Below are positions 5,201 to 14,799 of a stretch of 14,799 nucleotides of DNA, one piece after another. The position numbers were made by a program, and so were the translations under genes. Source of the stretch: a virus (lineage: Duplodnaviria > Heunggongvirae > Uroviricota > Caudoviricetes). The stretch is from IMG/VR virus record IMGVR_UViG_2654587540_000008. One strand, 5' to 3'. How positions within the stretch are numbered: the stretch's first letter is position 1; each line of letters opens with the position of its first letter. Below the pieces are notes generated by a model. It was not told where the DNA came from and made no database searches. It saw only the letters and a program-made list of their open reading frames with translations.

Positions 5201-5268
5201 AATCCCCTTTAATATCCGTCACGTCCACTGCCAGACATACTGCTCTGAATTTACAAAGGAGTATGATC

Positions 5269-5604
5269 ATGTCACAGACCCAGTCCGATACTTTTACGCT
5301 GTCTTATCCTTTCACCACTGCTGCAGGTACCAGAATTGAACAGATTGAACTGAAACGCCTGACAGTAAAAGACCTGAAGCAGGTGCGCAAAATCAACAAA
5401 GACCCGGCAGACTGGGACGAACCACTGATTGCCCGTAGCACCGGTATCCTCCCGGAAGACCTCGATAACATGGATCTTGCCGACTATATGGAGCTGCAGA
5501 AACGATTTCAGAAAATCACTGGGCTGGGCAAGAGCGACAAAAACACTGATGCAGGCGCAGGGGCTGCTGGCGAGATGGTTCAGGTTTCAGCCGGGGGAGA
5601 TTGA
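5269..5604 (+). CDS. Tail assembly chaperone (P2 gpE / lambda gpG-like), upstream ORF of a frameshift pair
   Basis: The track ORF starts at 5263; the ATG at 5269 has AAGGAG 7 nt upstream. The protein (..RIEQIELKRLTVKDLKQV...DLADYMELQKRFQKITG..) resembles the gpE family of tail chaperones. It lies immediately upstream of the tape measure gene, as is conserved in long-tailed phages. Confidence 0.75.
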   Translation: MSQTQSDTFTLSYPFTTAAGTRIEQIELKRLTVKDLKQVRKINKDPADWDEPLIARSTGILPEDLDNMDLADYMELQKRFQKITGLGKSDKNTDAGAGAAGEMVQVSAGGD

Positions 5605-5686
5605 TGCCCTCGATACTGACGATCTGGAGATGTGGCTGGAGCAGGCTGAAGAGCAAATCAAAAGCGAGTTCGGCGACAATCAGTAA
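5429..5686 (+). CDS. Overlapping ORF in the +1 frame; putative frameshift extension of the tail chaperone (E'/GT-like)
   Basis: Open in the frame one nucleotide forward of the chaperone frame, overlapping its 3' end and extending 82 nt past its stop to TAA at 5684-5686. A G5 run (5593-5597) lies 5 nt before the chaperone stop. The geometry implies a +1 or -2 shift rather than the canonical -1. Confidence 0.5.
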   Translation: MPVAPVSSRKTSITWILPTIWSCRNDFRKSLGWARATKTLMQAQGLLARWFRFQPGEIDALDTDDLEMWLEQAEEQIKSEFGDNQ

Positions 5687-5778
5687 CAACGTATCACTTA
5701 ACAGCCGCCAGTCGCGGCTGTTCTGCATGGGGTTCAGACACTTCCCTTCCGTTTTTTTGCTTTCAGAGGATAGCCACC

Positions 5779-8244
5779 GTGGCCAGTGAATTTTCAGTCG
5801 GCGTCATTATTGGCGGCATTGTCGGGAGCAGCTTCCGCTCAGCCGTCAGTGGCACCCGACGCGCCCTTGATTCCCTTGGTGATACCTCCCGCCGTCTGCA
5901 GGAACGCCAGAATGCCTTAACCCGGGCAACAGAACGTTATGGTCAGTTGGGTTCTTCCCGGATGCAGCATCTCAACAGCGAGTTGCTGCGGGTAAGCCGC
6001 ACCATGGAGCAAATTGAACGTCAGCAGCGCCGTCTGTCAGCAGTATCAGCCATCGGTGATGCGTTGAAGGCTAACCGCCTGGCGCTCTATGGTCAGGGTG
6101 CAGAAACCTATGCTATTGGCAGAACGCTGGGCGCACCGGTCATGGCCTCGGTTAAACAATATGCCTCGTTTGAATCACAGTTACGGGATATCAGTGTCAC
6201 AGGAGACCTGGATGCAAAACAGGAACGTGCAATTGGCCTGGCTATCAGACAGGCCTCGCTGAAGGTTAACCAACTGCAGGAGTCTCTGTTAGGGGGAGTC
6301 GGACAATTAGTCGCTGATGGTATGGCCCCCGAACGGGCAGCAACGTTTGCAGAGATGCTTGGAAAGACCGCTACAGCAACCAAAGCCGATATGACCGACC
6401 TTGCCAAAATGACTTATGCCTTCAGCGATGCACTCAGAATCACTGATGCGAAAGAACTTGAACAGGCATTTGGTATTGCGGCAACAGGAGCCAAACTTGG
6501 GTCATTTGAGCTGAAGGATATGGCAAAAGCATTACCCGGTATGGCTAAAGCCTTCGCTGCTCGTGGTATTTATGGAAAAGATGCGATTACCCAGATTGTT
6601 GCCAGTCTGGAGGTCGGTAAAGGTAGTGGCTCTGCAGAGGAAGCGGTCACCAATATGTCCAACTGGCTGGCAGCAATGGGCCGCGGAGATACCATCCAGA
6701 AATATGCTAAAGCCGGGGTGGATTACCAGGGGTCAATGCAGAATTACGTCGCTCAGGGTTTTTCGCAGTACGAAGCTTCACTGATGATTGCCAACCGTTT
6801 TATCGACAGTAAAGGCAAAGCGTTCTTGCAGCAATGGAAAGCTGCAGGAGCAAGAGGCGATCAGGAAGGTCAGCAGAAACTCATGGAGTCATTTGGTCTG
6901 GCTGAGGTCTTTACCGATATTCAGACTGTCAACCATTTACTGTCAATGCGACAGGGCTGGGATAAATACCTTTCCAGTAAGCAGGAAATGAATGCTCCGG
7001 CTGCAATGTCTACCCTGGATAAGGATGCTGCAAAGCAGAATGATACGCTTGAAGGTCGCTGGCGCAGAATGCAGATCGGCTTTAATGATTCTGCTATCAG
7101 CATCGGGCAATCCTTGCGTCCGGCTTTGCTCCAGTTGGGTGAAACATTTATTCCTTTAATGGACAGTGTTGGCAAATGGATAGCGGCAAATCCGCAGCTC
7201 GTCAGCAGCACCATAAAGGTTGTGGGCGCATTACTCGCTTTCAGGATGGCCACTATCGGTCTCAAGCTTGGGCTGAACCTCCTTCTTTCCCCCTTTGTAA
7301 GCGTCTGGAAAAATGCTGTTTTACTTCGGGCCAACTGGCTTCGTCTGACGCTCGCACTGGGGGAAGGCGGTAAACTCCGCTGGCTGGTGACAGGCTTTGG
7401 TGCTGTCGCCAGAGGAGCCAGAACACTGGGTGGTGTGCTCTCAGGGGGGCTGGTTCGCGGAATTATGAGCGCCGGGCGTGCCGTTCTCTGGCTTGGCCGG
7501 GCGCTGATGATGAATCCCATCGGTCTCGCTATCACCGCCGTCGCGGCAGCAGCTTACCTTATCTACCGCAACTGGGGCGCGGTCAGTAGCTGGTTTAAAC
7601 AGCGCTGGGCTGACATTCAGGAAGCCTTTAACGGCGGCATCGCGGGAATTGGTAAACTGCTGGTTAACTGGTCTCCGGCAGGTCTGCTTTATAAAGCCTT
7701 TGCGGCTGCGCTGAAATATCTCGGCGTTGATTTGCCGGCGAAATTCACCGACTTCGGTGGTCATCTTATTGACGGGCTGATAAATGGCATCAGAAACAAA
7801 TGGGAGTCACTGAAAACCAGCATAACCGGAATGGGTGACAGCATCAGTGACTGGTTCAGCGAAAAGCTGGGCATCCATTCACCGAGTCGCGTGTTTATAG
7901 GCTTTGGTGACAATATCGCGCAGGGTGCCGCCATTGGCCTGCAACGGACCACTCCGCTTGCTGCACTGGCCGGGCAGCGTCTGGCCGCTGAAATGACACC
8001 GGATGTTCCCCGTATCCCGTCGCCGGAAATCATGGCTGCCGGATATTCAGGCCGTGGCGCAACTGCAACCGGCGGTGGAGCGTCTGGCGGTATCCAGGTC
8101 AGCTTTAATCCTCAGTTTTTCCTCAATGGTAAGGAAACCGCAGCGCCTGCCGGGCTGGCTGGTGCCCTGAATATGAGCCTGCATGAGCTGGAAAAAATGC
8201 TGGAGCGTCTGCTGGCTCAGAAACAACGTAAGGAGTACAGCTGA
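5779..8244 (+). CDS. Tail tape measure protein
   Basis: 821-aa ORF from a GTG start at 5779 (GAGGA 9 nt upstream). N-terminal helical, Q/R/E-rich region, a central glycine-rich hydrophobic stretch (...GFGAVARGARTLGGVLSGGLVRGIMSAG...) and position directly after the chaperone pair are typical of tape measure proteins. Confidence 0.85.
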   Translation: MASEFSVGVIIGGIVGSSFRSAVSGTRRALDSLGDTSRRLQERQNALTRATERYGQLGSSRMQHLNSELLRVSRTMEQIERQQRRLSAVSAIGDALKANRLALYGQGAETYAIGRTLGAPVMASVKQYASFESQLRDISVTGDLDAKQERAIGLAIRQASLKVNQLQESLLGGVGQLVADGMAPERAATFAEMLGKTATATKADMTDLAKMTYAFSDALRITDAKELEQAFGIAATGAKLGSFELKDMAKALPGMAKAFAARGIYGKDAITQIVASLEVGKGSGSAEEAVTNMSNWLAAMGRGDTIQKYAKAGVDYQGSMQNYVAQGFSQYEASLMIANRFIDSKGKAFLQQWKAAGARGDQEGQQKLMESFGLAEVFTDIQTVNHLLSMRQGWDKYLSSKQEMNAPAAMSTLDKDAAKQNDTLEGRWRRMQIGFNDSAISIGQSLRPALLQLGETFIPLMDSVGKWIAANPQLVSSTIKVVGALLAFRMATIGLKLGLNLLLSPFVSVWKNAVLLRANWLRLTLALGEGGKLRWLVTGFGAVARGARTLGGVLSGGLVRGIMSAGRAVLWLGRALMMNPIGLAITAVAAAAYLIYRNWGAVSSWFKQRWADIQEAFNGGIAGIGKLLVNWSPAGLLYKAFAAALKYLGVDLPAKFTDFGGHLIDGLINGIRNKWESLKTSITGMGDSISDWFSEKLGIHSPSRVFIGFGDNIAQGAAIGLQRTTPLAALAGQRLAAEMTPDVPRIPSPEIMAAGYSGRGATATGGGASGGIQVSFNPQFFLNGKETAAPAGLAGALNMSLHELEKMLERLLAQKQRKEYS

Positions 8245-9128
8245 TGTTTGCCGTACTGGGTGATATTGAGTTTGAGCTGATTACCTACTGGGACGGCTTC
8301 GAGGCCACGTTTGGCGTCGATTATGCGGAGCATGCCCGCATCGAGGGTAAACCCGGCCTGCAGTTCGTCGGCGACAGGCTGGACGAAATCCAGATAAGCC
8401 TGGTCTTCCATCAGCATTATTGTGTGCCCGACGTGGAGCTGGCGAGAGTGCGAACAGCCATGAAGGCCCATCAGGCACTGGCGCTGGTCTTCGGCAACGG
8501 TGACTATCGCGGCTGGTTCGTGATTACCGATGTGACCGCAACCAGCGAGCAGACAGACAGCACCGGTAACGTGCTGGCTGTCAGTGCCACCGTGTCTCTC
8601 CGGGAATACACCGGTGACCCGAAAAATCCTCTGCAACCGCCGGCAATACGCAGGCAGGTTCCCGGTGCCGGGGCCGTATCTGGTGCTGTTCCATCGCCTT
8701 CCGGGGTGGCGCAGTTCGTCCGTAACGGCGTCAACTATGCGAAACAGGCGCAGTCTGTACTCCAGACCACTATCAGTGCCGTTCGGGTGGCGCAGAAAAT
8801 GAAGGGTAACCCCGTTGTCGCGCTGACCCGTGTGCCGGGACTGATGAGCGGACTGGGTAATATATCCGGAGCTCTGGGGAAAAGTGTTCCGGCGTTTAAT
8901 GCACTCTCTGAATCCATGCCCGATGCCATCAGTCTGGCCAGAACAGCCAGTGAGGCAGCCACGTATGTACAGCAGGCGCAGTCGGCGCTGAGTGGTGTGG
9001 ACAAAAGAAATATTGCAGGTGCTCTGGATACCGTTTCCGGGCAGCTTAACGCCGCCGGCACAGCATTCAACCGCATGTCTCCGGGATTAAGTGCAATGGC
9101 CGCCAGAATACTGACGAGGAGTGTGTGA
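8244..9128 (+). CDS. Tail protein with gpU / DNA-circulation-N-like N-terminal domain and a low-complexity Ala/Ser/Gly-rich C-terminal extension
   Basis: The ATG overlaps the tape measure stop (TGATG) with AAGGAG 8 nt upstream. The first ~125 aa (MFAVLGDIEFEL...GKPGLQFVGDRLDEIQISLVFH...GNGDYRGWFVITDVTATSEQTDSTGNVLAVSATVSLREY) align by eye with the P2 gpU-type fold. The remaining ~170 aa are low-complexity and unassigned. Confidence 0.65.
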   Translation: MFAVLGDIEFELITYWDGFEATFGVDYAEHARIEGKPGLQFVGDRLDEIQISLVFHQHYCVPDVELARVRTAMKAHQALALVFGNGDYRGWFVITDVTATSEQTDSTGNVLAVSATVSLREYTGDPKNPLQPPAIRRQVPGAGAVSGAVPSPSGVAQFVRNGVNYAKQAQSVLQTTISAVRVAQKMKGNPVVALTRVPGLMSGLGNISGALGKSVPAFNALSESMPDAISLARTASEAATYVQQAQSALSGVDKRNIAGALDTVSGQLNAAGTAFNRMSPGLSAMAARILTRSV

Positions 9129-9205
9129 TGTTTCTTGAACATATTACCCGTGACGGAGAGCGCTGGGATTCTCTGTGGATGAGGCACTGGCCATTGATGT
9201 GCTGA
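9128..9205 (+). pseudogene. Short out-of-frame leader ORF (MFLEHITRDGERWDSLWMRHWPLMC), possible remnant N-terminus of a deleted or frameshifted tail gene
   Basis: ATG at 9128, 25 codons, in a different frame from the J-like ORF that opens at 9175. The J-like protein lacks the N-terminal part expected for baseplate J proteins. The GDxWDSL motif is reminiscent of LysM-like tail protein X N-termini (weak). Confidence 0.3.
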
Positions 9206-9987
9206 TCCCGGCAGGCACCCGCGTCAGCGCTTCCGACAGTATTATTTTTGCCACCGATACAGATGTGGTGCTGAAGGCCGGATTGCTGCTGGTCAATGTC
9301 ACGTCCACCTGTACCGAGCCGGGTACCGCTGGCAACGGCTGGCAACCGGCGCAGGTCAGTCAGTTACTCGATGAGATTGATAACATTGACCTGCTGGTGA
9401 CCAATCTGACGGCCAGCTCTGGCGGTTCAGAGCAGGAAGACGATGACCGGCTCCGGGAGCGTATCAGGCTGGCCCCGGAGTCATTCACCAATGCCGGAAG
9501 CCGTGGTGCATACCGTTTTCATGCTATGGGGGCGCATCCCGGCATTGTCGACGTTGCTGTTCTTTCTCCCGCTCCCGGCACTGTCGAGCTGTATCCGCTG
9601 CTCAGCACTGGTCTGCCGGACAGCAGTATCCTCACTCTGGTAGAGAGTTTCTGTTCTGACGAAAAAGTCAGACCACTCACTGATACCGTGCGGGCTAAAA
9701 CACCTGTTCAGGTGGATTACACCATTGAAGCCAGGATTACGATCTATCGTGATCAGGATGCAAGGTTGGTAAAGGACAACGCTAACAGCGCCATACAGAA
9801 CTGGGTGGCATCCCGTACCGCCACGCTGGGGCGCGATATTGTTCCCAGCCAGATTATCAGCGTGTTGTCCGTTTCCGGGGTGTACCAGGTCGAACTGGTG
9901 ACACCGGCACTGAGGGTGGTGGCAGAAAACGAATGGGCAAACTGTACGGCGATCACTCTTAACATGACCGGGGTGTCCGATGGCTGA
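9175..9987 (+). CDS. Baseplate assembly protein J-like (P2 gpJ / Mu gp47 family), apparently N-terminally truncated
   Basis: 270 aa from the first in-frame start (GTG at 9175). The C-terminal two thirds (..GSRGAYRFHAMGAHPGIVDVAVLSPAPGTVELY...TLGRDIVPSQIISVLSVSGVYQVELVTP...) match the gpJ family as I recall it. An 8-bp overlap (ATGGCTGA) with the I-like gene is typical of J-I pairs. Confidence 0.7.
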   Translation: MDEALAIDVLIPAGTRVSASDSIIFATDTDVVLKAGLLLVNVTSTCTEPGTAGNGWQPAQVSQLLDEIDNIDLLVTNLTASSGGSEQEDDDRLRERIRLAPESFTNAGSRGAYRFHAMGAHPGIVDVAVLSPAPGTVELYPLLSTGLPDSSILTLVESFCSDEKVRPLTDTVRAKTPVQVDYTIEARITIYRDQDARLVKDNANSAIQNWVASRTATLGRDIVPSQIISVLSVSGVYQVELVTPALRVVAENEWANCTAITLNMTGVSDG

Positions 9988-10558
9988 GGTGCTACAACTC
10001 CCGCCACCGCTTGAGGGTGATATCAGTCTCAGAACGCTGGGAAGACTGGCCGGACGGCTGGATAACATCGACCTGAGCGTACTGATGGTCGGTCTCGTCG
10101 ATATTGTCGACAGTTCCGCGCTGCCATGGCTTGGCGAGCAGTTCTCGCTGTTCGGCGATGGCTGGGAACTGGCGGAATCGGACGATGTACGCCGCATGCT
10201 TATCAAATCCGCTATCGAGCTACACCGCTATAAAGGAACACCGTGGTCAATCCGGGAAATTATCCGCCGTTTTGGCTTCGGCGAAGTGGATCTGATTGAA
10301 GGTACGGGGCAGATTGGCTATGACGGCAGACACACGTACAACGGGCTTTTCGTCCATGGCGATGCACAAGCCTGGGCAGTCTATCGGGTCATCCTTCAAC
10401 AGCCCATCACTAATGATCAGGCAGCGCTGTTACGTCAGACGCTTGCTGCCTTTGCTCCGGCTCGCTGTCATCTGGCAAGTCTGGAATATCAGTCTGTCGC
10501 CATTCGATACAACAGTACTACCCGTTATGACGGTAGTTACAACCACGGGAGCAGTTAA
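9980..10558 (+). CDS. Tail protein I-like (P2 gpI / Mu gp48 family)
   Basis: 192 aa containing IELHRYKGTPWSIREIIRRFGFGEVDLIEG, a hallmark-like motif of the gpI family. Positioned between the J-like gene and the tail fibre gene. Confidence 0.75.
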   Translation: MAEVLQLPPPLEGDISLRTLGRLAGRLDNIDLSVLMVGLVDIVDSSALPWLGEQFSLFGDGWELAESDDVRRMLIKSAIELHRYKGTPWSIREIIRRFGFGEVDLIEGTGQIGYDGRHTYNGLFVHGDAQAWAVYRVILQQPITNDQAALLRQTLAAFAPARCHLASLEYQSVAIRYNSTTRYDGSYNHGSS

Positions 10559-10560
10559 TT

Positions 10561-11643
10561 ATGGCAAATCTACCCGAAACCCCGCAGTGGGAAAGCGGCA
10601 TCTACCAGATTGAGGTCTCTGACCCCGTTCTGGGCGGACCTGACGGAATTTCTAACCGCCAGGCTAAACAACTGGCCAGCCGAACGTCATACCTCAAACA
10701 GAAGGTCGAAAAAAGCGAAACAGACCTGGCTGCACATATCGCGGCAGTTGACCCGCATACCCAGTACGCGACGAAAGCCAGTCCGACATTCACCGGCACA
10801 CCAACAGCACCTACACCTGCAAATGGTGATAACAGCAAAAAGCTGGCGACGACGGAGTTTGTGGCCAAAGCACTTGCGGCACTTGCAGGCAGCGCCCCTG
10901 AGACACTGGATACGCTTAAAGAGCTGGCTGACGCTCTCGGTAATGATCCAAACTTTGCGACTACGGTACTGAACAAGCTGGCGGAAAAGCTGGCTAAAGA
11001 CCAGAACGGCGCAGATATTCCTGAGCCTGCGCTGTTTGTCAAAAACCTTGGTTTGGGGGAAGGCTCTGCACTGCCCGTTGGTGTGCCTGTTCCGTGGCCA
11101 TCAGCAACACCGCCAGAGGGATGGCTGAAATGTAACGGCGCAGCATTTTCTTCTGAAATGTACCCCAAACTGGCAAAGGCTTATCCCACGAATAAATTAC
11201 CGGATTTACGGGGTGAATTTATCCGTGGCTGGGATGACGGACGTGGCGTGGATGCGGGGCGAACATTACTGGGTGCTCAGGATTTTGCGTTTGAAGATCA
11301 TGCTCTGGGGCTACCTACCAATCAGGGATATGCAGGTATTGAGAAAGGTAGCACTGAAAATGATATTTATGCCGCTTTCTCTGATGGCATGCACTATACA
11401 GGGAATGCAACCAGTAGCGGTCAATGGGATGATTATTCTCAGTCAAAAATCTATATCCGTAGTGATGGTAAACCTGTCGGAAATAACATTGAGTTAGCTA
11501 ATTCAAATGAGGCCTTGCGTTCTTCTTTACGTACTTATAGAGCCAGTACAGGATGGTATAACCCAGGATTAAACAAACCTAAAACAGCTACAGAAACACG
11601 TCCACGCAACGTTGCTTTTAATTACATCGTAAGAGCCGCATGA
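10561..11643 (+). CDS. Tail fibre protein: constant N-terminal part (10561 to about 11047) fused to currently expressed variable C-terminal cassette A
   Basis: 360 aa. The N-terminus has phage tail-fibre repeat-like sequence (VDPHTQYATKASPTFTGTPTAPTPANGDNSKKLATTEFV). The C-terminal part begins with a tail-collar-like module (WLKCNGAAFSSEMYPKLAKAYPTNKLPDLRGEFIRGWDDGRG) and ends ETRPRNVAFNYIVRAA. The crossover site lies inside the gene at 11036-11061. Confidence 0.85.
   Translation: MANLPETPQWESGIYQIEVSDPVLGGPDGISNRQAKQLASRTSYLKQKVEKSETDLAAHIAAVDPHTQYATKASPTFTGTPTAPTPANGDNSKKLATTEFVAKALAALAGSAPETLDTLKELADALGNDPNFATTVLNKLAEKLAKDQNGADIPEPALFVKNLGLGEGSALPVGVPVPWPSATPPEGWLKCNGAAFSSEMYPKLAKAYPTNKLPDLRGEFIRGWDDGRGVDAGRTLLGAQDFAFEDHALGLPTNQGYAGIEKGSTENDIYAAFSDGMHYTGNATSSGQWDDYSQSKIYIRSDGKPVGNNIELANSNEALRSSLRTYRASTGWYNPGLNKPKTATETRPRNVAFNYIVRAA
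11036..11061 (+). other. Serine-invertase crossover site (hix/gix/cix-like), expression-site copy
   Basis: TTGTCAAAAACC-TT-GGTTTGGGGGAA has the 12-2-12 architecture and AAACC nn GGTTT core of hixL (TTCTTGAAAACC AA GGTTTTTGATAA) and gix sites, as recalled. It sits exactly at the constant/variable junction of the tail fibre gene. Confidence 0.7.
11048..11253 (+). repeat. Conserved 5' cassette module, copy A (tail-collar-like domain coding, ~200 bp)
   Basis: Encodes GLGEGSALPVGVPVPWPSATPPEGWLKCNGAAFSSEMYPKLAKAYPTNKLPDLRGEFIRGWDDGRG. Near-identical DNA recurs at 11649, 12193 and, inverted, at about 13990-14194, with a partial inverted copy at about 13592-13700. Confidence 0.85.
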
Positions 11644-11662
11644 AAACGTTGGTTTGGGGGAA
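11637..11662 (+). other. Crossover-site-like sequence at the cassette A/B junction, with a degenerate left half-site
   Basis: CGCATGAAAACG-TT-GGTTTGGGGGAA. The right half and centre are identical to the expression-site copy; the left half retains only the AAAAC core (5 of 12 matches). Confidence 0.4.
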
Positions 11663-11854
11663 GGCTCTGCACTGCCCGTTGGTGTGCCTGTTCCGTGGCC
11701 ATCAGCCACACCGCCAGAGGGCTGGCTGAAATGCAACGGCGCAGCATTTTCTTCTGAAATGTACCCCAAACTGGCAAAGGCTTACCCCACCAATAAATTA
11801 CCGGATTTACGCGGTGAGTTTATTCGTGGCTGGGATGACGGGCGCGGAGTAGAT
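11649..11854 (+). repeat. Conserved 5' cassette module, copy B
   Basis: Near-identical to 11048-11253 with scattered, mostly synonymous substitutions; the encoded peptide is identical through GWDDGRG. Confidence 0.85.
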
Positions 11855-12187
11855 ACAGGACGTGTTTTATTAAGTAATCAAACAGATGCTTTTCAAACAC
11901 ACAGACATAAGACCTATTTTTATGCAGGTATCAACCGTAATGAAATGCCTTTAAAAAATTTACCTGAATCAGAAGAAATGCTGACATTAAGCTCTACAGT
12001 TAATGCCTTGTCTCCAGCCGATATTGATGCCACAAATTCATTAATTGGGAATGACGATTACAACTGTGTTATTGAAGGCAATAAAAACAGTAAACGTACA
12101 GCGACAGAGTTGAATACCAGCTCTACAGGCACAACAGAAACCCGCCCCCGCAATATTGCTTTTAACTTCATTGTAAGAGCAGCATAG
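11651..12187 (+). CDS. Silent alternative tail-fibre C-terminal cassette B (no independent start codon or RBS)
   Basis: Open frame beginning right after the stop of cassette A. It encodes the same 65-aa tail-collar module, then a divergent ~95-aa region, and ends with the conserved ETRPRNIAFNFIVRAA and TAG. The track start is an internal TTG with no Shine-Dalgarno sequence. Confidence 0.7.
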   Translation, partial: GLGEGSALPVGVPVPWPSATPPEGWLKCNGAAFSSEMYPKLAKAYPTNKLPDLRGEFIRGWDDGRGVDTGRVLLSNQTDAFQTHRHKTYFYAGINRNEMPLKNLPESEEMLTLSSTVNALSPADIDATNSLIGNDDYNCVIEGNKNSKRTATELNTSSTGTTETRPRNIAFNFIVRAA

Positions 12188-12206
12188 AAACGTTGGTTTG
12201 GGGGAA
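12181..12206 (+). other. Crossover-site-like sequence at the cassette B/C junction, with a degenerate left half-site
   Basis: AGCATAGAAACG-TT-GGTTTGGGGGAA; same right half and centre as the expression-site copy. Confidence 0.4.
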
Positions 12207-12398
12207 GGCTCGGCGCTGCCTGTTGGCGTGCCGGTTCCATGGCCGTCAGCCACACCGCCAGAGGGCTGGCTGAAATGTAACGGCGCAGCATTTTCTTCTG
12301 AAATGTACCCCAAACTGGCAAAGGCTTACCCCACCAATAAATTACCGGATTTACGGGGTGAGTTTATTCGTGGCTGGGATGACGGGCGCGGAATTGAC
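12193..12398 (+). repeat. Conserved 5' cassette module, copy C
   Basis: Near-identical to copies A and B; the encoded peptide is identical through GWDDGRG. Confidence 0.85.
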
Positions 12399-12665
12399 TC
12401 TGGTCGCAACCTGTTATCTGCACAGAATGATGCAATTCAGAATATTGTTGGTTCTTTTGGGCGTACCCAGCTTTTTAAAGACGTTCTTAGTTCAGGACCA
12501 TTTAGTAGAATTAATCAAGTTTTATCTATTGGTCTAAAGGAAACGGAATTTATTGAGGGTTATGGAGCTTATAACTGGACATTCGACGCTTCTCGAGCGG
12601 TTCGTACAGCATCTGAAACCCGCCCCCGAAATATTACATTTAACTATATCGTGAGGGCGGCTTAA
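12195..12665 (+). CDS. Silent alternative tail-fibre C-terminal cassette C
   Basis: Same conserved 5' module, a divergent middle (..NLLSAQNDAIQNIVGSFGRTQLFKDVLSSGPFSRINQVLSIGLKETEFIEGYGAYNWTFDASRAVRTAS..) and the conserved end ETRPRNITFNYIVRAA, stop TAA at 12663-12665. No start codon context. Confidence 0.7.
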   Translation, partial: GLGEGSALPVGVPVPWPSATPPEGWLKCNGAAFSSEMYPKLAKAYPTNKLPDLRGEFIRGWDDGRGIDSGRNLLSAQNDAIQNIVGSFGRTQLFKDVLSSGPFSRINQVLSIGLKETEFIEGYGAYNWTFDASRAVRTASETRPRNITFNYIVRAA

Positions 12666-12671
12666 TTATGA

Positions 12672-13289
12672 TCAACTGACAGTTGCCAGAGGCATTTCCG
12701 GCCAGTTGATATCCGGCGCAGTGCTGAGGTCAGTCGCATTAAGCGCATCTATAAAATCAAGCACGGCGTTCAGTTTTTCCGTCTCCTGTGGCGTCAACTG
12801 GCGTCCGGCTCGTAGTTTGAGATTTATAAGCTCAACGGATGCCATTGCCTGCTCCTCAAGTTGCTGACGATGCGCTCCGGCAGCTTCCAGTTCTGCAGTG
12901 TGCTGTCGTTCCGTATCTGTCACCCAGTTCTCACCATCCCAGATATCATAGATGGTAGCTGGCTGTTTTACCGTCGTATCAGAAGGGTAATCTCCCGGCT
13001 GTGTGATTTGCACAGCGTTACCATTCTCTGTGCTGTAAACCGTCTCGCCTCTGTGGTCTGGGACATATTTCCAGATGTTCTGGTCGGTATCACGACAGAC
13101 AGCGAAGCCAGGGCGCTCTTCCGGTGGCGCGTCAATGCATGAATGAGCCGGAATTCCAACACCATAAGCGAGATATTCAACAGTGGCAGAGAGATATTCA
13201 CGGTTTTCAGCATCGTAGTTATAAACTGTAATATCGCCTGCAGTTGTAGCGATACCATTCTGATCAAGTACTGCAACAGCGTTATTCAT
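12672..13289 (-). CDS. Tail fibre assembly protein (Tfa; Mu U / P2 gpG / lambda Tfa family)
   Basis: 205 aa. The C-terminus ..LNAVLDFIDALNATDLSTAPDINWPEMP has the typical Tfa ending. The start codon overlaps the stop of cassette D as TAATG (translational coupling). It converges on cassette C with 6 bp between stops. Confidence 0.8.
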   Translation of the reverse strand: MNNAVAVLDQNGIATTAGDITVYNYDAENREYLSATVEYLAYGVGIPAHSCIDAPPEERPGFAVCRDTDQNIWKYVPDHRGETVYSTENGNAVQITQPGDYPSDTTVKQPATIYDIWDGENWVTDTERQHTAELEAAGAHRQQLEEQAMASVELINLKLRAGRQLTPQETEKLNAVLDFIDALNATDLSTAPDINWPEMPLATVS

Positions 13290-13700
13290 TAAATAGCCCT
13301 TACAATATAGTTAAACGCAATATTACGGGGGCGGGTTTCTGTTCCTGTATTCCCTCCGTTGACACCTAACCTGTACACACCACGAGTGCCAATAGCACGT
13401 AGTGAAGATGGAACCTTTACGCCTGACTCATCTGTTTTAACTATCCCTCCATCCCCGTATGTAGCCAGTATACCAGGATTTGTACCTGCACGTGTGCTGT
13501 TTGCAGCAAGCCCTTCACCGGTCCATAACTCCATATAGTGAGTATGATCCATAACCGAATGTGGTTGTGCATTAAGCAAGAAACGCCCTGAATCAATTCC
13601 CCGTCCGTCATCCCAGCCACGAATAAACTCACCCCGTAAATCCGGTAATTTATTGGTGGGGTAAGCCTTTGCCAGTTTGGGGTACATTTCAGAAGAAAAT
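13289..13700 (-). CDS. Alternative tail-fibre C-terminal cassette D (inverted orientation, 5' end truncated by an N run), followed by tfa
   Basis: Minus-strand frame encoding ..SSEMYPKLAKAYPTNKLPDLRGEFIRGWDDGRGIDSGRFLLNAQPHSVMDHTHYMELWTGEGL...TGTETRPRNIAFNYIVRAI. The first ~100 bp of the conserved module are missing where the N run 13701-13710 sits. Confidence 0.7.
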
Positions 13701-13710
13701 NNNNNNNNNN
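13701..13710. other. Run of 10 N at the cassette E/D junction; assembly gap or masked sequence
   Basis: By comparison with the A/B and B/C junctions, about 97 bp of conserved sequence (crossover site plus start of the tail-collar module) is expected here, so the 10 N do not represent true length. Confidence 0.9.
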
Positions 13711-13715
13711 CGTTT

Positions 13716-14194
13716 CTATGCTGCTCTTACAATGAAGTTAAAAGCAATATTGCGTGGACGAGTTATATTAAAAAATGACCCACTTAAAGCAACTTTGGAA
13801 CGGCTATTGGCGTTACCCAGAGATGCGTACCATAAATAATCGCTCCGATAATCAGTTGAGAATGTTTTATCACCGCCATAATCAATGCTATTACCGTTAC
13901 TCATATATGAAATATCAACTGAAGCATCATTGTCATCTCTACCACCAACTAAAGTACCTTTCTGCCACCCAAGCAACTGGCGGCCAGGATCAATTCCCCG
14001 TCCATCATCCCAGCCACGAATAAACTCACCCCGTAAATCCGGTAATTTATTCGTGGGATAAGCCTTTGCCAGTTTGGGGTACATTTCAGAAGAAAATGCT
14101 GCGCCGTTACATTTCAGCCAGCCCGCTGGCGGTGTGGCTGACGGCCACGGAACAGGCACACCAACGGGCAGTGCAGAGCCTTCCCCCAAACCAA
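13716..14194 (-). CDS. Alternative tail-fibre C-terminal cassette E (inverted orientation)
   Basis: Minus-strand frame encoding the full conserved module (one substitution, PPAGW instead of PPEGW), a divergent middle (..QLLGWQKGTLVGGRDDNDASVDISYMSNGNSIDYGGDKTFSTDYRSDYLWYASLGNANSRSKVALSGSFFN) and ITRPRNIAFNFIVRAA. The track's upstream extension to 14228 runs through the N run and is not trusted. Confidence 0.7.
13990..14194 (-). repeat. Conserved 5' cassette module, copy E (inverted)
   Basis: Reverse complement is near-identical to 11048-11253. Confidence 0.85.
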
Positions 14195-14204
14195 NNNNNN
14201 NNNN
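14195..14204. other. Run of 10 N exactly where the crossover half-site of cassette E is expected
   Basis: On the minus strand the sequence reads ...CTTTGTTTTG-N10-TTGGTTTGGGGGAA. The N run replaces the left half-site and lies 22 bp upstream of the invertase start. Confidence 0.9.
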
Positions 14205-14226: not shown

Positions 14227-14799
14227 ATGCAAATTGGCTACATTCGTGTGTCAACAAATGACCAGAATACAGATTTACAACGAAACGCACTGAACTGCGC
14301 AGGATGTGAACTGATTTTTGAAGATAAAATCAGCGGAACAAAGTCAGCCAGACCAGGATTGAAAAAGCTACTCAGAACTTTATCAGAAGGAGATACGCTC
14401 GTTGTCTGGAAGCTGGACAGGCTGGGCAGAAGCATGAAGCACCTTATCACTCTTATTGAGGAACTGCGGGGAAAAGGGGTTAACTTCCGTAGCCTTACAG
14501 ACAGCATTGATACGTCAACACCCATGGGACGTTTCTTTTTTCACATCATGGGGGCTTTGGCGGAAATGGAGCGTGAATTAATAGTTGAACGAACACTGGC
14601 CGGACTTGAAGCAGCACGTGCACAGGGGCGTATTGGCGGACGCCGTCCGAAACTGACAAAAGAGCAACATGAACAAATAGCAAGGCTGATCAAAAATGGC
14701 TATAGCAGGAAACAACTGGCAATTATTTACGATATCGGCATATCGACGATTTATCGTTATCACCCGGTAGAAAAGCTACAAACTCAAACTGAGTTGTAA
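14227..14799 (+). CDS. Gin/Pin/Cin/Hin-family serine DNA invertase
   Basis: 190 aa. MQIGYIRVSTNDQNTDLQRNAL...DTLVVWKLDRLGRSMKHL...FRSLTDSIDTSTPMGRFFFHIMGALAEMERELIVERT...GRIGGRRPKL is near-identical in motif content to Gin/Pin/Hin as recalled. The catalytic Ser is at position 9 and there is a C-terminal helix-turn-helix. The track ORF from 14074 is an upstream artefact; stop TAA at 14797-14799. Confidence 0.92.
   Translation: MQIGYIRVSTNDQNTDLQRNALNCAGCELIFEDKISGTKSARPGLKKLLRTLSEGDTLVVWKLDRLGRSMKHLITLIEELRGKGVNFRSLTDSIDTSTPMGRFFFHIMGALAEMERELIVERTLAGLEAARAQGRIGGRRPKLTKEQHEQIARLIKNGYSRKQLAIIYDIGISTIYRYHPVEKLQTQTEL

Follow-up and report, generated by a model that had tools for sequence, protein, structure and literature searches.

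Host-range engineering of phages and tailocins usually assumes that each fibre tip travels with its own chaperone. The locus studied here raises the question of what a single tail-fibre assembly gene (tfa) does for five alternative fibre tips. To address it, we analysed the whole 14,799-nt stretch of Caudoviricetes DNA (IMG/VR record IMGVR_UViG_2654587540_000008; hereafter the window) and compared its fibre locus with related arrays in other prophages and plasmids.

The fibre locus and its single tfa gene

The genes for baseplate J and gpI precede the tail-fibre gene, which is followed by a series of tip cassettes, one tfa and a DNA invertase gene (Table 1). The fibre protein carries a Collar domain (PF07484, Pfam) at residues 174-221, and this domain is common to cassettes A, B, C and E. 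The repeated modules of the locus (214 nt, 93% identity) occur in five copies in the window, which is far beyond chance. By sequence, we counted one HxH motif each in B and D and none in A (which has DHALG), C and E. The profile of the cassettes aligned to residues 27-241 of the T4 gp37 tip (2XGF, E 1e-21), and this match, made on sequence only, covers both ends, namely the collar and the C-terminal NIAFNYIVRL. Cassette C also resembles a segment of a short tail fibre (9cuy). The AlphaFold2 model of cassette B, built from a five-sequence alignment, had a mean pLDDT of 38, too low to be of use. The chain of gp37-like tips turns round and returns to the collar (PMC12609058).

Table 1. Features of the fibre locus, with positions in the window
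Feature	Position	Strand	Evidence or content
Tail-fibre gene (constant part of ~164 aa plus tip A; 360 aa in total)	10561..11643	+	ORF
Crossover site 1, inside the fibre gene	11036..11061	+	TTGTCAAAAACC TT GGTTTGGGGGAA
Crossover site 2, start of cassette B	11637..11662	+	CGCATGAAAACG TT GGTTTGGGGGAA
Silent tip cassette B	11654..12187	+	ORF; HxH motif THRHK
Crossover site 3, start of cassette C	12181..12206	+	Sequence match
Silent tip cassette C	12198..12665	+	ORF; one arm of the central segment
tfa (205 aa), part of the central segment	12672..13289	-	Caudo_TAP PF02413, E 5e-26
Tip cassette D	13289..13700	-	HxH motif DHTHY; cut by N run
N gap 1	13701..13710	.	Crossover site 4 and first part of D's shared module
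Silent tip cassette E	13716..14194	-	ORF; 100% identical to the L167 / L170 cassette
Crossover site 5, visible half	14181-14194	-	Within cassette E
N gap 2	14195..14204	.	Other half of site 5 and intergenic DNA before the invertase
Din-family serine DNA invertase (190 aa)	14227..14799	+	Resolvase PF00239, E 3e-51

In Tfa, PF02413 spans residues 80-200, and the precomputed domains of an identical protein are PF28596 (Caudo_TAP_N) and PF02413, the Caudo_TAP architecture of a conserved C-terminal domain and a variable, fibre-binding N-terminal one. The stop codon of D and the start of tfa overlap as TAATG (13291-13287, minus strand), and a Shine-Dalgarno-like AAGGG lies 8 nt upstream of the ATG. 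A profile HMM of tfa matched the whole window only once, even at E<=10, and a PDB sequence search with Tfa gave no match. Scans for terminators and sigma-70-like consensus promoters, which are uninformative for Mor/C-type late promoters, found no promoter for the minus-strand tfa, and promoter-like sites were fewer than in shuffles. Cassette C and tfa are convergent, 3'-to-3', with a 6-nt spacer. The 3' neighbour of A, B, C and E is a crossover site, the 3' end of tfa or the invertase region, and never another tfa. The invertase also has an HTH_7 domain (PF02796, E 1e-13), as expected of a Din-family recombinase.

The window is a scaffold of three pieces broken exactly in repeats, and its two 10-N runs are placeholders of unknown length. 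This would suit an assembly artefact, in which the gaps conceal additional tfa genes or cassettes or the pieces are in the wrong order, an explanation that we consider highly improbable. At these places, contigs of 99.7-100% identity to the window and free of gaps hold just 97 nt at gap 1 (L167; shared module and crossover site) and 44 nt of intergenic DNA at gap 2 (L170; flanks 100% identical). The order of the window is a legitimate isomer, one inversion from L167, and ten gap-free relatives encoding the identical Tfa have one tfa each. In relatives, the invertase is the last prophage gene with host DNA beyond it, and the next annotated host gene begins ~80 bp past the invertase in L001-L003 and ~290 bp past it in L167. 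A complete 36-kb relative prophage has only one tfa.

The initial annotation described one tfa after cassette D, on the minus strand and coupled by TAATG, and an expressed fibre (constant part plus A) that has no co-oriented tfa downstream in the present arrangement. ORFs, domains and sequence bear out this anatomy, and the asymmetry is correct. It had also allowed for additional tfa genes in the N gaps or just beyond the window; given the short gaps and the host genes that follow, there are none.

Crossover sites and isomers of the array

The crossover sites are 26 bp long, with imperfect dyad symmetry about a central dinucleotide, and take the form ..AAAAC(C/G) TT GGTTTGGGGGAA, in agreement with the EC958 sites and the Din-family consensus. 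As in other Din-family systems they are present in inverted orientation, here with three on the plus and two on the minus strand. Site 1 fits the Din-family consensus, and its right half-site is identical to the crossover half-site of an EC958 prophage. L167 and L170 show sites 4 and 5 in full. The five sites delimit four segments, three of which are the single tips A, B and E, while the fourth is the central segment C> <tfa <D. Any inversion includes the centre, so the central segment keeps its place and merely flips, giving 4! x 2 = 48 isomers.

Our simulation likewise gave 48 isomers from five sites, with tfa in sense orientation to the fibre gene in 24. Sorted by fused tip, tfa is in sense in 6/12 isomers for each of A, B and E, in 6/6 for D and in 0/6 for C. 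The same rule with six sites gave 240 isomers in simulation, which is reportedly the number published for p15B Min. For such arrays, the rule of an invariant centre segment and (n-1)! x 2 isomers may aid the reading of assemblies. Inversion arrays are routinely broken in assemblies.

The window and L167 (99.7-100% identical) are a single inversion apart, between site 3 and site 5; in L167 a single strand carries constant part-A, B, E, D and tfa in this order. Among gap-free contigs with an identical Tfa, the same cassettes occur in differing orders, in at least seven arrangements, and the D>tfa> <C core is constant. These isomers indicate that inversion occurs in the array. The constant part of relatives is fused to tip B (341 aa), C (319 aa; L169) or D (331 aa), and tips A, B, C and D have each been found fused to it in natural isolates. 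The view that only D is paired with tfa thus holds in that the sole tfa adjoins D, but tfa is not tied to D alone, as it is in sense in half of the isomers, L167 among them.

One tfa across the array family

We found exactly one tfa, in central position, in 25 of ~29 arrays with at least three cassettes. The arrays counted come from BcepMu-like, P2-like and P1-like contexts and have up to 9 cassettes. A tfa outside the invertible DNA was never seen among them. The exceptions look like a broken copy, deletions or misassembly. The assumption that arrays never lack tfa was rejected: the P1-like plasmid arrays L180 and L181 have none, and in L180 the first codons of the deleted tfa remain, with no tfa on the whole 113.7-kb plasmid. 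L124 has two tfa genes, in a perfect palindromic duplicate of the centre, and its second tfa is most likely a misassembly. Judged from this comparison, the single-tfa layout is a family-wide design and not a loss or defect of this copy. The expectation that each tip comes with its own tfa is valid for two-state segments (Mu, P1, e14) but fails for Min-type arrays, in which a single tfa is the norm.

Two-tip systems with one tfa (L001, Klebsiella KP12_2) retain both the tfa-less tip and the invertase. The tfa-less cassettes have dN/dS values of 0.09-0.18, indicating purifying selection, by a test that is not specific to cassette position. Together with the natural fusions of A, B, C and D, these values disfavour the option that only the D arrangement gives a functional fibre.

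Tip types and Tfa lineages

Own tfa genes coupled by TGATG/TAATG were found for B-type tips in 10/15 copies and for F-type tips in 17/33. An adjacent tfa was seen in the sample in 0/13 copies of C-type tips (tip type 2), 0/3 of A-type and 1/9 of E-type. D-type tips are tfa-less peripheral cassettes in L103, L133, L148 and L131, and in the first three of these the array tfa belongs to another lineage and lies behind another tip. Tips of the B, F, 5 and 10 types are tfa-less in arrays and have their own coupled tfa in two-state loci. HK97 Stf, whose identity to cassette C is 65% along the full cassette, also comes with a tfa of its own. Every array keeps its tfa-convergent tip intact, which is cassette C in the window and F or type 5 in other arrays.

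Tfa proteins beside ten unrelated tip types share 82-91% identity between types and 91-93% within a type. The D-linked Tfa forms a separate lineage, with 98% identity within it and 60% to the common lineage. In the N-domain, identity is 95% within a tip type versus 82% between types, and in the C-domain it is 90% in both. These comparisons show no pairing between tip and Tfa, as tip types occur with and without tfa. Nor did they give any sign of a Tfa specific to each tip, which the initial annotation had named as a refuting observation.

A rule by which HxH tips need Tfa and HxH-less tips do not was rejected. The F-type tip (KHRH) is tfa-convergent in most arrays, and a dedicated tfa accompanies the HxH-less types 8 and 13. 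The plaque-isolated Yersinia phage vB_YpM_MHG75, pro483 and HK97 are ordinary tip-plus-tfa cases and are uninformative on tfa-antisense states.

Proposed role of the single Tfa

With about even confidence, we propose that the tips share the single Tfa, a chaperone in the class of lambda Tfa and T4 gp38 that has essentially no tip specificity. Among the three options of the initial annotation, one Tfa serving all tips through the shared module is the best supported, given the near-identical Tfa across tips and the occurrence of tips with and without tfa; folding of the tips without a chaperone is possible but less well supported. The invertase recombines the five sites, so that the constant part can receive any one of the five gp37-like tips. 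In every tip, a variable receptor-binding insert lies between a conserved collar module and a C-terminal strand, likewise conserved, that returns to the collar. The most likely targets of Tfa would be the elements that all tips have in common, namely the collar and the C-terminal strand RPRNIAFNYIVRA, at which the ends of the three chains come together. Tfa would be made from the late fibre transcript when D-tfa faces in the direction of the fibre gene, which would be always with D, half of the time with A, B and E, and never with C. Tips from tfa-antisense isomers may nevertheless assemble, whether in lower yield without help or with Tfa from co-resident prophages. On gp37, lambda Tfa can take the place of gp38, and the variable tips of the gp37-like receptor-binding family come with a conserved assembly protein (PMC9659904). 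Xenorhabdicin fibres were swappable without their chaperone (PMC13280938).

Several observations fit less well with a shared chaperone. Half of the isomers have tfa in antisense, and the scan gave it no sigma-70-like promoter. For a shared chaperone that is truly required, a position outside the invertible DNA would be the better one. The tfa-convergent tip can never be co-transcribed with tfa, yet it is always intact, and the persistence of two-tip systems with one tfa points to a tfa-less state that works without Tfa from the operon. The separate lineage of the D-linked Tfa and the greater likeness of the N-domain within tip types also speak against it. Much of this would suit a Tfa that is cognate to tip D alone, where it helps folding or stays on the fibre as a cap, while A, B, C and E trimerise alone or with host chaperones. 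We regard this as unlikely, though a tentative case can be made: no crossover site ever separates D from the translationally coupled tfa, tip C is never co-oriented with tfa, own tfa genes are almost absent for C-, A- and E-type tips in the sample, and xenorhabdicin fibres work without a matching chaperone; the distinct D-linked lineage, the N-domain identities and the two-tip systems add to it. However, D-type tips are tfa-less in L103, L133 and L148 with a tfa of another lineage behind another tip, and B-, F-, type-5 and type-10 tips as well as the HK97 relative of cassette C have their own tfa. Tfa is also nearly identical across unrelated tips, which again argues against a partner of D only.

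Conversely, Tfa may be needed by every tip. Only the tfa-sense isomers would then work, and the other half, and tip C always, would give fibreless or inactive particles as a cost of the system. In phages with one or two tips, dedicated tfa genes exist for all tip classes, T4 and lambda require gp38 or Tfa for their gp37-like tips (PMC9603124; PMC9659904), and the scan showed no independent tfa promoter. We nevertheless find this improbable, as the tfa-convergent cassette is intact in every array, and two-tip prophages with one tfa would be mere on/off switches, yet their second tip is kept intact. A 50% loss of productive bursts should favour a tfa outside the invertible DNA, an arrangement never seen, and the dN/dS values of the tfa-less cassettes also count against it, although that test does not distinguish cassette positions. 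Alternatively, Tfa may be available in every isomer, through a leftward transcript from the region between the last site and the invertase, or in trans from other prophages with near-identical Tfa. From the last site to the invertase start there are 44 nt of conserved sequence, with identical spacing in BcepMu-, P1- and P2-like arrays and a conserved TGGTATAGG on the minus strand; tfa has its own Shine-Dalgarno-like motif. Fibre/tfa-homologous DNA was found in 2245 of 5426 E. coli genomes, at a median of 2 places per genome, and Tfa proteins are nearly tip-agnostic. We give this reading little credence, since the minus strand gave no consensus promoter in the scan, the conserved sequence may simply be the promoter of the invertase, and supply in trans would be unreliable in a new host.

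We also considered, as a quite improbable variant, that the flipping of tfa is a second switch on top of the tip switch, by which A, B and E would be Tfa-capped in the sense state or bare in the antisense state. The Tfa proteins of Mu and Ur-lambda are reported to stay on the mature fibre and contribute to host recognition (summarised in PMC9608196). If Tfa stays on the fibre here, the 48 isomers would give up to eight adsorption phenotypes and not five, and with such a second switch the central position of tfa would be selected and not accidental.

Relation to known inversion systems

The region is a Min-type (p15B-like) fibre array that a BcepMu-like transposable prophage carries at its right end, and the switch is of a known kind, the p15B-Min-type multiple-inversion array. 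The assignment to Bcepmuvirus-like phages applies to the relatives only, as the window itself holds just the tail half. Mu-type transposase, Mor and Gam genes were found in the L166 prophage, the host flanks differ in every relative genome, and PhiKM is classified as Bcepmuvirus. The p15B Min system, reportedly described by Sandmeier, Iida and Arber in 1990-92, likewise has a Din-family serine invertase, more than two crossover sites and a constant 5' fibre part with alternative 3' tips. In contrast to p15B Min, the present array lies in a BcepMu-like transposable prophage and not on a P1-type plasmid, has five sites and not six, and has a D-type tip beside tfa, with the diverged Tfa lineage (60% identical).

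The arrays and recombinase of ~95-kb P1-like plasmids have 85-90% DNA identity to those of the window. These plasmid arrays have one tfa and 3-7 cassettes. The P1-like copies carry a truncated second invertase gene; p15B is said to have a comparable pseudo-win.

The Mu G/Gin, P1 C/Cin and e14 P/Pin systems and the EC958 prophages share the recombinase family, the 26-bp site consensus and the swap of the fibre 3' end with the window. However, their segments have two sites, and each tip has its own mirror-image tfa (S-U / U'-S'), whereas the window has five sites, one tfa and a broken mirror symmetry, which sets it apart from two-state segments. T4 gp37 and lambda Stf likewise combine a collar and a C-terminal strand with a Caudo_TAP chaperone encoded directly downstream through a stop/start overlap. 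B and D carry an HxH motif, and A, C and E lack one; the inserts in the window are 60-120 aa long with one HxH or none, while gp37 has seven HxH and much longer inserts.

In the R64 shufflon (Rci, PilV), multiple inversions join one of several C-terminal adhesin tips to a constant N-terminal part. It differs in using a tyrosine recombinase and a pilus adhesin, in having no assembly chaperone and in its unrelated sequence. Carotovoricin Er and the xenorhabdicins also exchange collar-type fibre tips by inversion, but these are tailocins and not phages. The xenorhabdicin loci are without their own invertase and have many tfa genes, and their authors posed the same question of whether there is a common chaperone or none is needed (PMC13280938).

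Significance for fibre exchange

The combination of up to nine tips with one tfa suggests that one near-generic Tfa is enough, or is dispensable, for gp37-like collar tips. If a single generic Tfa suffices, fibre swapping would be simpler. The arrays also provide a ready-made genetic test of chaperone specificity, because they present the same tips with tfa in sense, antisense, adjacent and distant positions.

A single tfa gene in the tail-fibre array

The right end of the window holds five alternative tips, one tfa gene and an invertase (see table). Pfam also placed Collar PF07484 in tip A, and tip D gave no match because the N gap removes that portion. A 214-nt 5' module (93% identity) recurs in all five tips, as does a 3' end of about 50 nt, which encodes ETRPRNIAFNYIVRAA. 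The profile HMM returned one Tfa match in the whole window, even at E<=10, and the stop codon of D overlaps the tfa start as TAATG. Thus, the single tfa coupled to D was correctly read in the initial annotation. An AAGGG ribosome-binding motif precedes tfa itself. C and tfa are convergent (12663-12674); a mere 6 nt separates their stop codons, and the junction has no terminator-like hairpin.

Features of the tail-fibre array and second-invertase fragments of P1-like arrays (loci L180-L182)
Feature	Coordinates	Strand	Remarks
Baseplate J	9175-9987		
gpI	9980-10558		
Tail-fibre gene (constant part + tip A)	10561-11643	+	360 aa
Tip ORF B	11654-12187	+	Collar PF07484 (Pfam)
Tip ORF C	12198-12665	+	Collar PF07484 (Pfam)
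tfa	12672-13289	-	205-aa ORF; Caudo_TAP, E 5e-26 (Pfam)
Tip ORF D	13289-13700	-	Collar part missing, lost in N gap
Tip ORF E	13716-14194	-	Collar PF07484 (Pfam)
Serine recombinase (last gene)	14227-14799		190 aa; Resolvase + HTH_7 (Pfam)
Second-invertase fragment, L180	7447-7566		
Second-invertase fragment, L181	8088-8207		
Second-invertase fragment, L182	7857-7976		

Both 10-N runs (13701-13710, 14195-14204) sit exactly on crossover sites and shared modules, indicating that the window was scaffolded from three pieces, of which the middle one is just one cassette of 484 nt. Breaks of this kind are expected when an inverting, repetitive array is assembled from short reads. By exact-sequence look-up of Tfa, we found ten gap-free NCBI contigs (L167-L176). 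Among these, L167 matches every piece of the window at 99.7-100% identity. There, gap 1 is only 97 nt of shared module and crossover site, and gap 2 is 44 nt of intergenic DNA in L170, whose flanks are 100% identical. The invertase is the terminal phage gene in L167-L176, in the related loci L001-L003 and in other relatives, and the distance from it to the next annotated host gene is about 80 bp in L001-L003 and roughly 290 bp in L167. A complete 36-kb relative prophage with transposase, Mor and Gam genes likewise has one tfa. Hidden tfa genes in the N gaps or just past the window, which would have refuted the initial reading, thus did not come to light.

The host genes beyond the invertase vary by genome, which fits a transposable (Mu-like) phage, and PhiKM, the nearest named phage, is assigned to Bcepmuvirus. 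Near-identical prophages (L167-L176, L001-L003) were found at different host genes each time: adjacent to hyc, inside fepE, inside a methyltransferase gene, near abrB, ymgF, ymjE and others. Further upstream, overlapping ORFs (5263-5604, 5429-5686, 5601-5789) lie between the tail tube region and the tape-measure gene, the usual site of the tail-assembly-chaperone frameshift. No canonical slippery heptamer was seen by eye in these ORFs (window 5263-5789).

Inversion places tfa behind several tips

At the start of each cassette lies a 26-bp Gin/Cin/Pin/Hin/Min-type site (..AAAAC(C/G) TT GGTTTGGGGGAA), which agrees with the published consensus and with those described in E. coli EC958 prophages. 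Three sites are in plus and two in minus orientation. Simulated inversion between oppositely oriented sites gave 48 isomers, following the rule (n-1)! x 2; six sites would give 240, reportedly the isomer number published for the p15B plasmid's Min system. The segment of C, tfa and D is site-free and spanned by every inversion, so it stays between the plus and minus cassettes and only flips.

As a result of the simulation, tfa has the orientation of the fibre gene in 24 of 48 isomers: 6/6 with D, 0/6 with C, and 6/12 each with A, B and E. The initial statement that tfa is paired with D alone thus holds for direct coupling and fails for co-orientation. The gap-free contigs carry several of these states. 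L167, one inversion from the window, has the constant part with A, then B, E, D and tfa all on one strand, and C inverted. The constant part is joined to D and then tfa in L168, to C with tfa antisense in L169, and to B in L172, where D and tfa come next in sense orientation. We found no terminator-like structure between cassettes. Since tfa also has its own AAGGG motif, the late fibre transcript would be expected to express tfa even from a distal position, provided that it is co-oriented. In the window's isomer, late transcription would cross tfa, D and E antisense and then the invertase gene in sense.

One tfa in most related arrays

To place this arrangement, we gathered 159 shared-module loci from one-genome-per-species contigs and IMG/VR, and scored cassettes, tfa genes and invertases by profile HMMs. 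With three P1-like plasmids and the ten contigs from the exact Tfa look-up counted in, some 29 arrays contain three or more cassettes. Exactly one tfa was found in 25 of them, always central and overlapping the innermost cassette of one side, in BcepMu-like, P2-like and P1-like contexts and with up to nine cassettes (L103). The phage record L006 has one tfa in fragments. The only array with two tfa genes, the IMG/VR contig L124, has its array centre duplicated as a perfect palindrome (7493-9525; tfa- cassette- / cassette+ tfa+), probably a misassembly of two inversion states. A tfa is absent from two P1-like plasmid arrays, L180 (NZ_CP128256.1) and L181. In L180, a cassette stop is followed by TAATGGATAATGCGATATTTAGC, the first tfa codons (5480-5760), a remnant that indicates loss by deletion, and no tfa homologue was found in the entire 113.7-kb plasmid. 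This plasmid carries Tn3, integron and IS elements. Two tips with a single tfa occur in E. coli 2014C-3075 and Klebsiella KP12_2; in ordinary one-tip and two-state loci, each tip is followed by a tfa.

The region between the last site and the invertase ATG (L001 8114-8167), masked in the window (14195-14204), has identical spacing and a strongly conserved CGTCTTAACTCCCACCTATACCAGCTATGTATTTTTAAC... in BcepMu-, P1- and P2-like arrays. This suggests that the invertase and its neighbouring site move as one module.

Tip types and the neighbouring Tfa

Variable inserts were clustered into 40 types, and each copy was scored for a following tfa. One followed B-type (10/15), F-type (17/33), D-type (6/10), type 5 (3/10), type 10 (3/8) and E-type (1/9) copies, and none of the C-type (0/13) or A-type (0/3) copies. 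The same type therefore occurs in three contexts: before TAATG-tfa, before a crossover site, or convergent with tfa. The remaining four D-type copies are peripheral and tfa-less, in arrays whose tfa adjoins another tip. HK97 Stf, 65% identical to cassette C, has its own tfa.

Beside ten unrelated tip types, Tfa proteins are 82-91% identical to each other, against 91-93% within a type. Type-linked signal was confined to the N-terminal 78 residues (95% within, 82% between types), with none in the C-domain, and may be mere physical linkage.

Both ends of the cassette profile match the receptor-binding tip of T4 gp37 (2XGF, E 1e-21): the N-terminal module resembles the gp37 collar and the last residues its C-terminal NIAFNYIVRL, while the long HxH needle falls between the two. 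Further matches of the profile are the gp12 collar and a chain of a short tail fibre (9cuy, E 2e-22). The chain of gp37-type tips goes to the head and returns to the collar (PMC12609058). This doubling back explains why both cassette ends are conserved, and brings the three C-termini together in the conserved collar.

At 11285-11300, tip A reads FAFEDHALGLPT, compared with ..DHAHGLPS and ..DHAHALPT in the related types 5 and 25; it looks like an HxH tip minus its second histidine. C-type tips (IQNIVG...FDASR) align over their full length to residues 155-304 of the 554-aa 9cuy 'short tail fiber' chain. This chain goes on for 250 residues past the match, so the same module can be fibre-internal.

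Assembly of the alternative tips

The gp37 protein needs gp38 (PMC9603124), which lambda Tfa can replace, and variable tips of this family are accompanied by a conserved assembly protein (PMC9659904). Tfa proteins reportedly bind the fibre with the N-domain and oligomerise with the C-domain (PMC9608196). Among the options first raised, one Tfa for all tips is the most likely, and we give it an even chance: a shared chaperone, not tip-specific, would have the conserved collar and C-terminal strand as its targets, and would be produced in every isomer whose central segment is oriented with the fibre gene. The near-identity of Tfa beside unrelated tips favours it. Its weak points are the half of isomers with tfa antisense, given that a scan found no promoter for tfa, then tip C, which never has tfa in sense, and the two-tip prophages, which retain a tfa-less tip. 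So either these tips assemble without Tfa, though perhaps less efficiently, or they obtain it from another source. Experiments on xenorhabdicin led to the same fork, 'common chaperone or not essential' (PMC13280938).

The Tfa linked to D forms its own lineage, with 60% identity to the others; that Tfa serves D specifically while the remaining tips are autonomous is nonetheless unlikely. In tfa-less cassettes, dN/dS of the variable regions is 0.09-0.18 (0.43 in the more heterogeneous E cluster), which resembles that of tfa-linked ones; these regions are therefore kept as coding sequence. It is quite improbable that Tfa is required and tfa-antisense isomers are dead. Supply of Tfa independently of orientation or in trans, for which the conservation of the 44-nt stretch before the invertase in three phage lineages speaks, is very unlikely. 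With gap-free contigs carrying the same Tfa, an assembly artefact is hardly credible.

Multiple-inversion systems of the Min kind have been known since p15B. P1-like plasmid arrays with one tfa and 3-7 cassettes are 85-90% identical to the window's array. Based on this identity, the sites and the isomer rule, we class the region as a Min-type multiple-inversion array in a BcepMu-like prophage. Immediately past the invertase, P1-like arrays carry a short inverted second-invertase fragment (profile positions 40-79), resembling the truncated 'pseudo-win' gene that neighbours min in p15B; in contrast, the window, which ends where the invertase gene ends, lacks it.

The array described here, in a BcepMu-like prophage, adds a new member to the kind of system known from p15B. 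That arrays in three phage lineages have one tfa, always central, with a Tfa nearly independent of the tip, does not appear to be spelled out in the literature covered. As a long shot, variation might have a further layer, in which tfa orientation decides between capped and bare fibres. The single tfa is a real asymmetry but a family trait, not an oddity of the window's locus.
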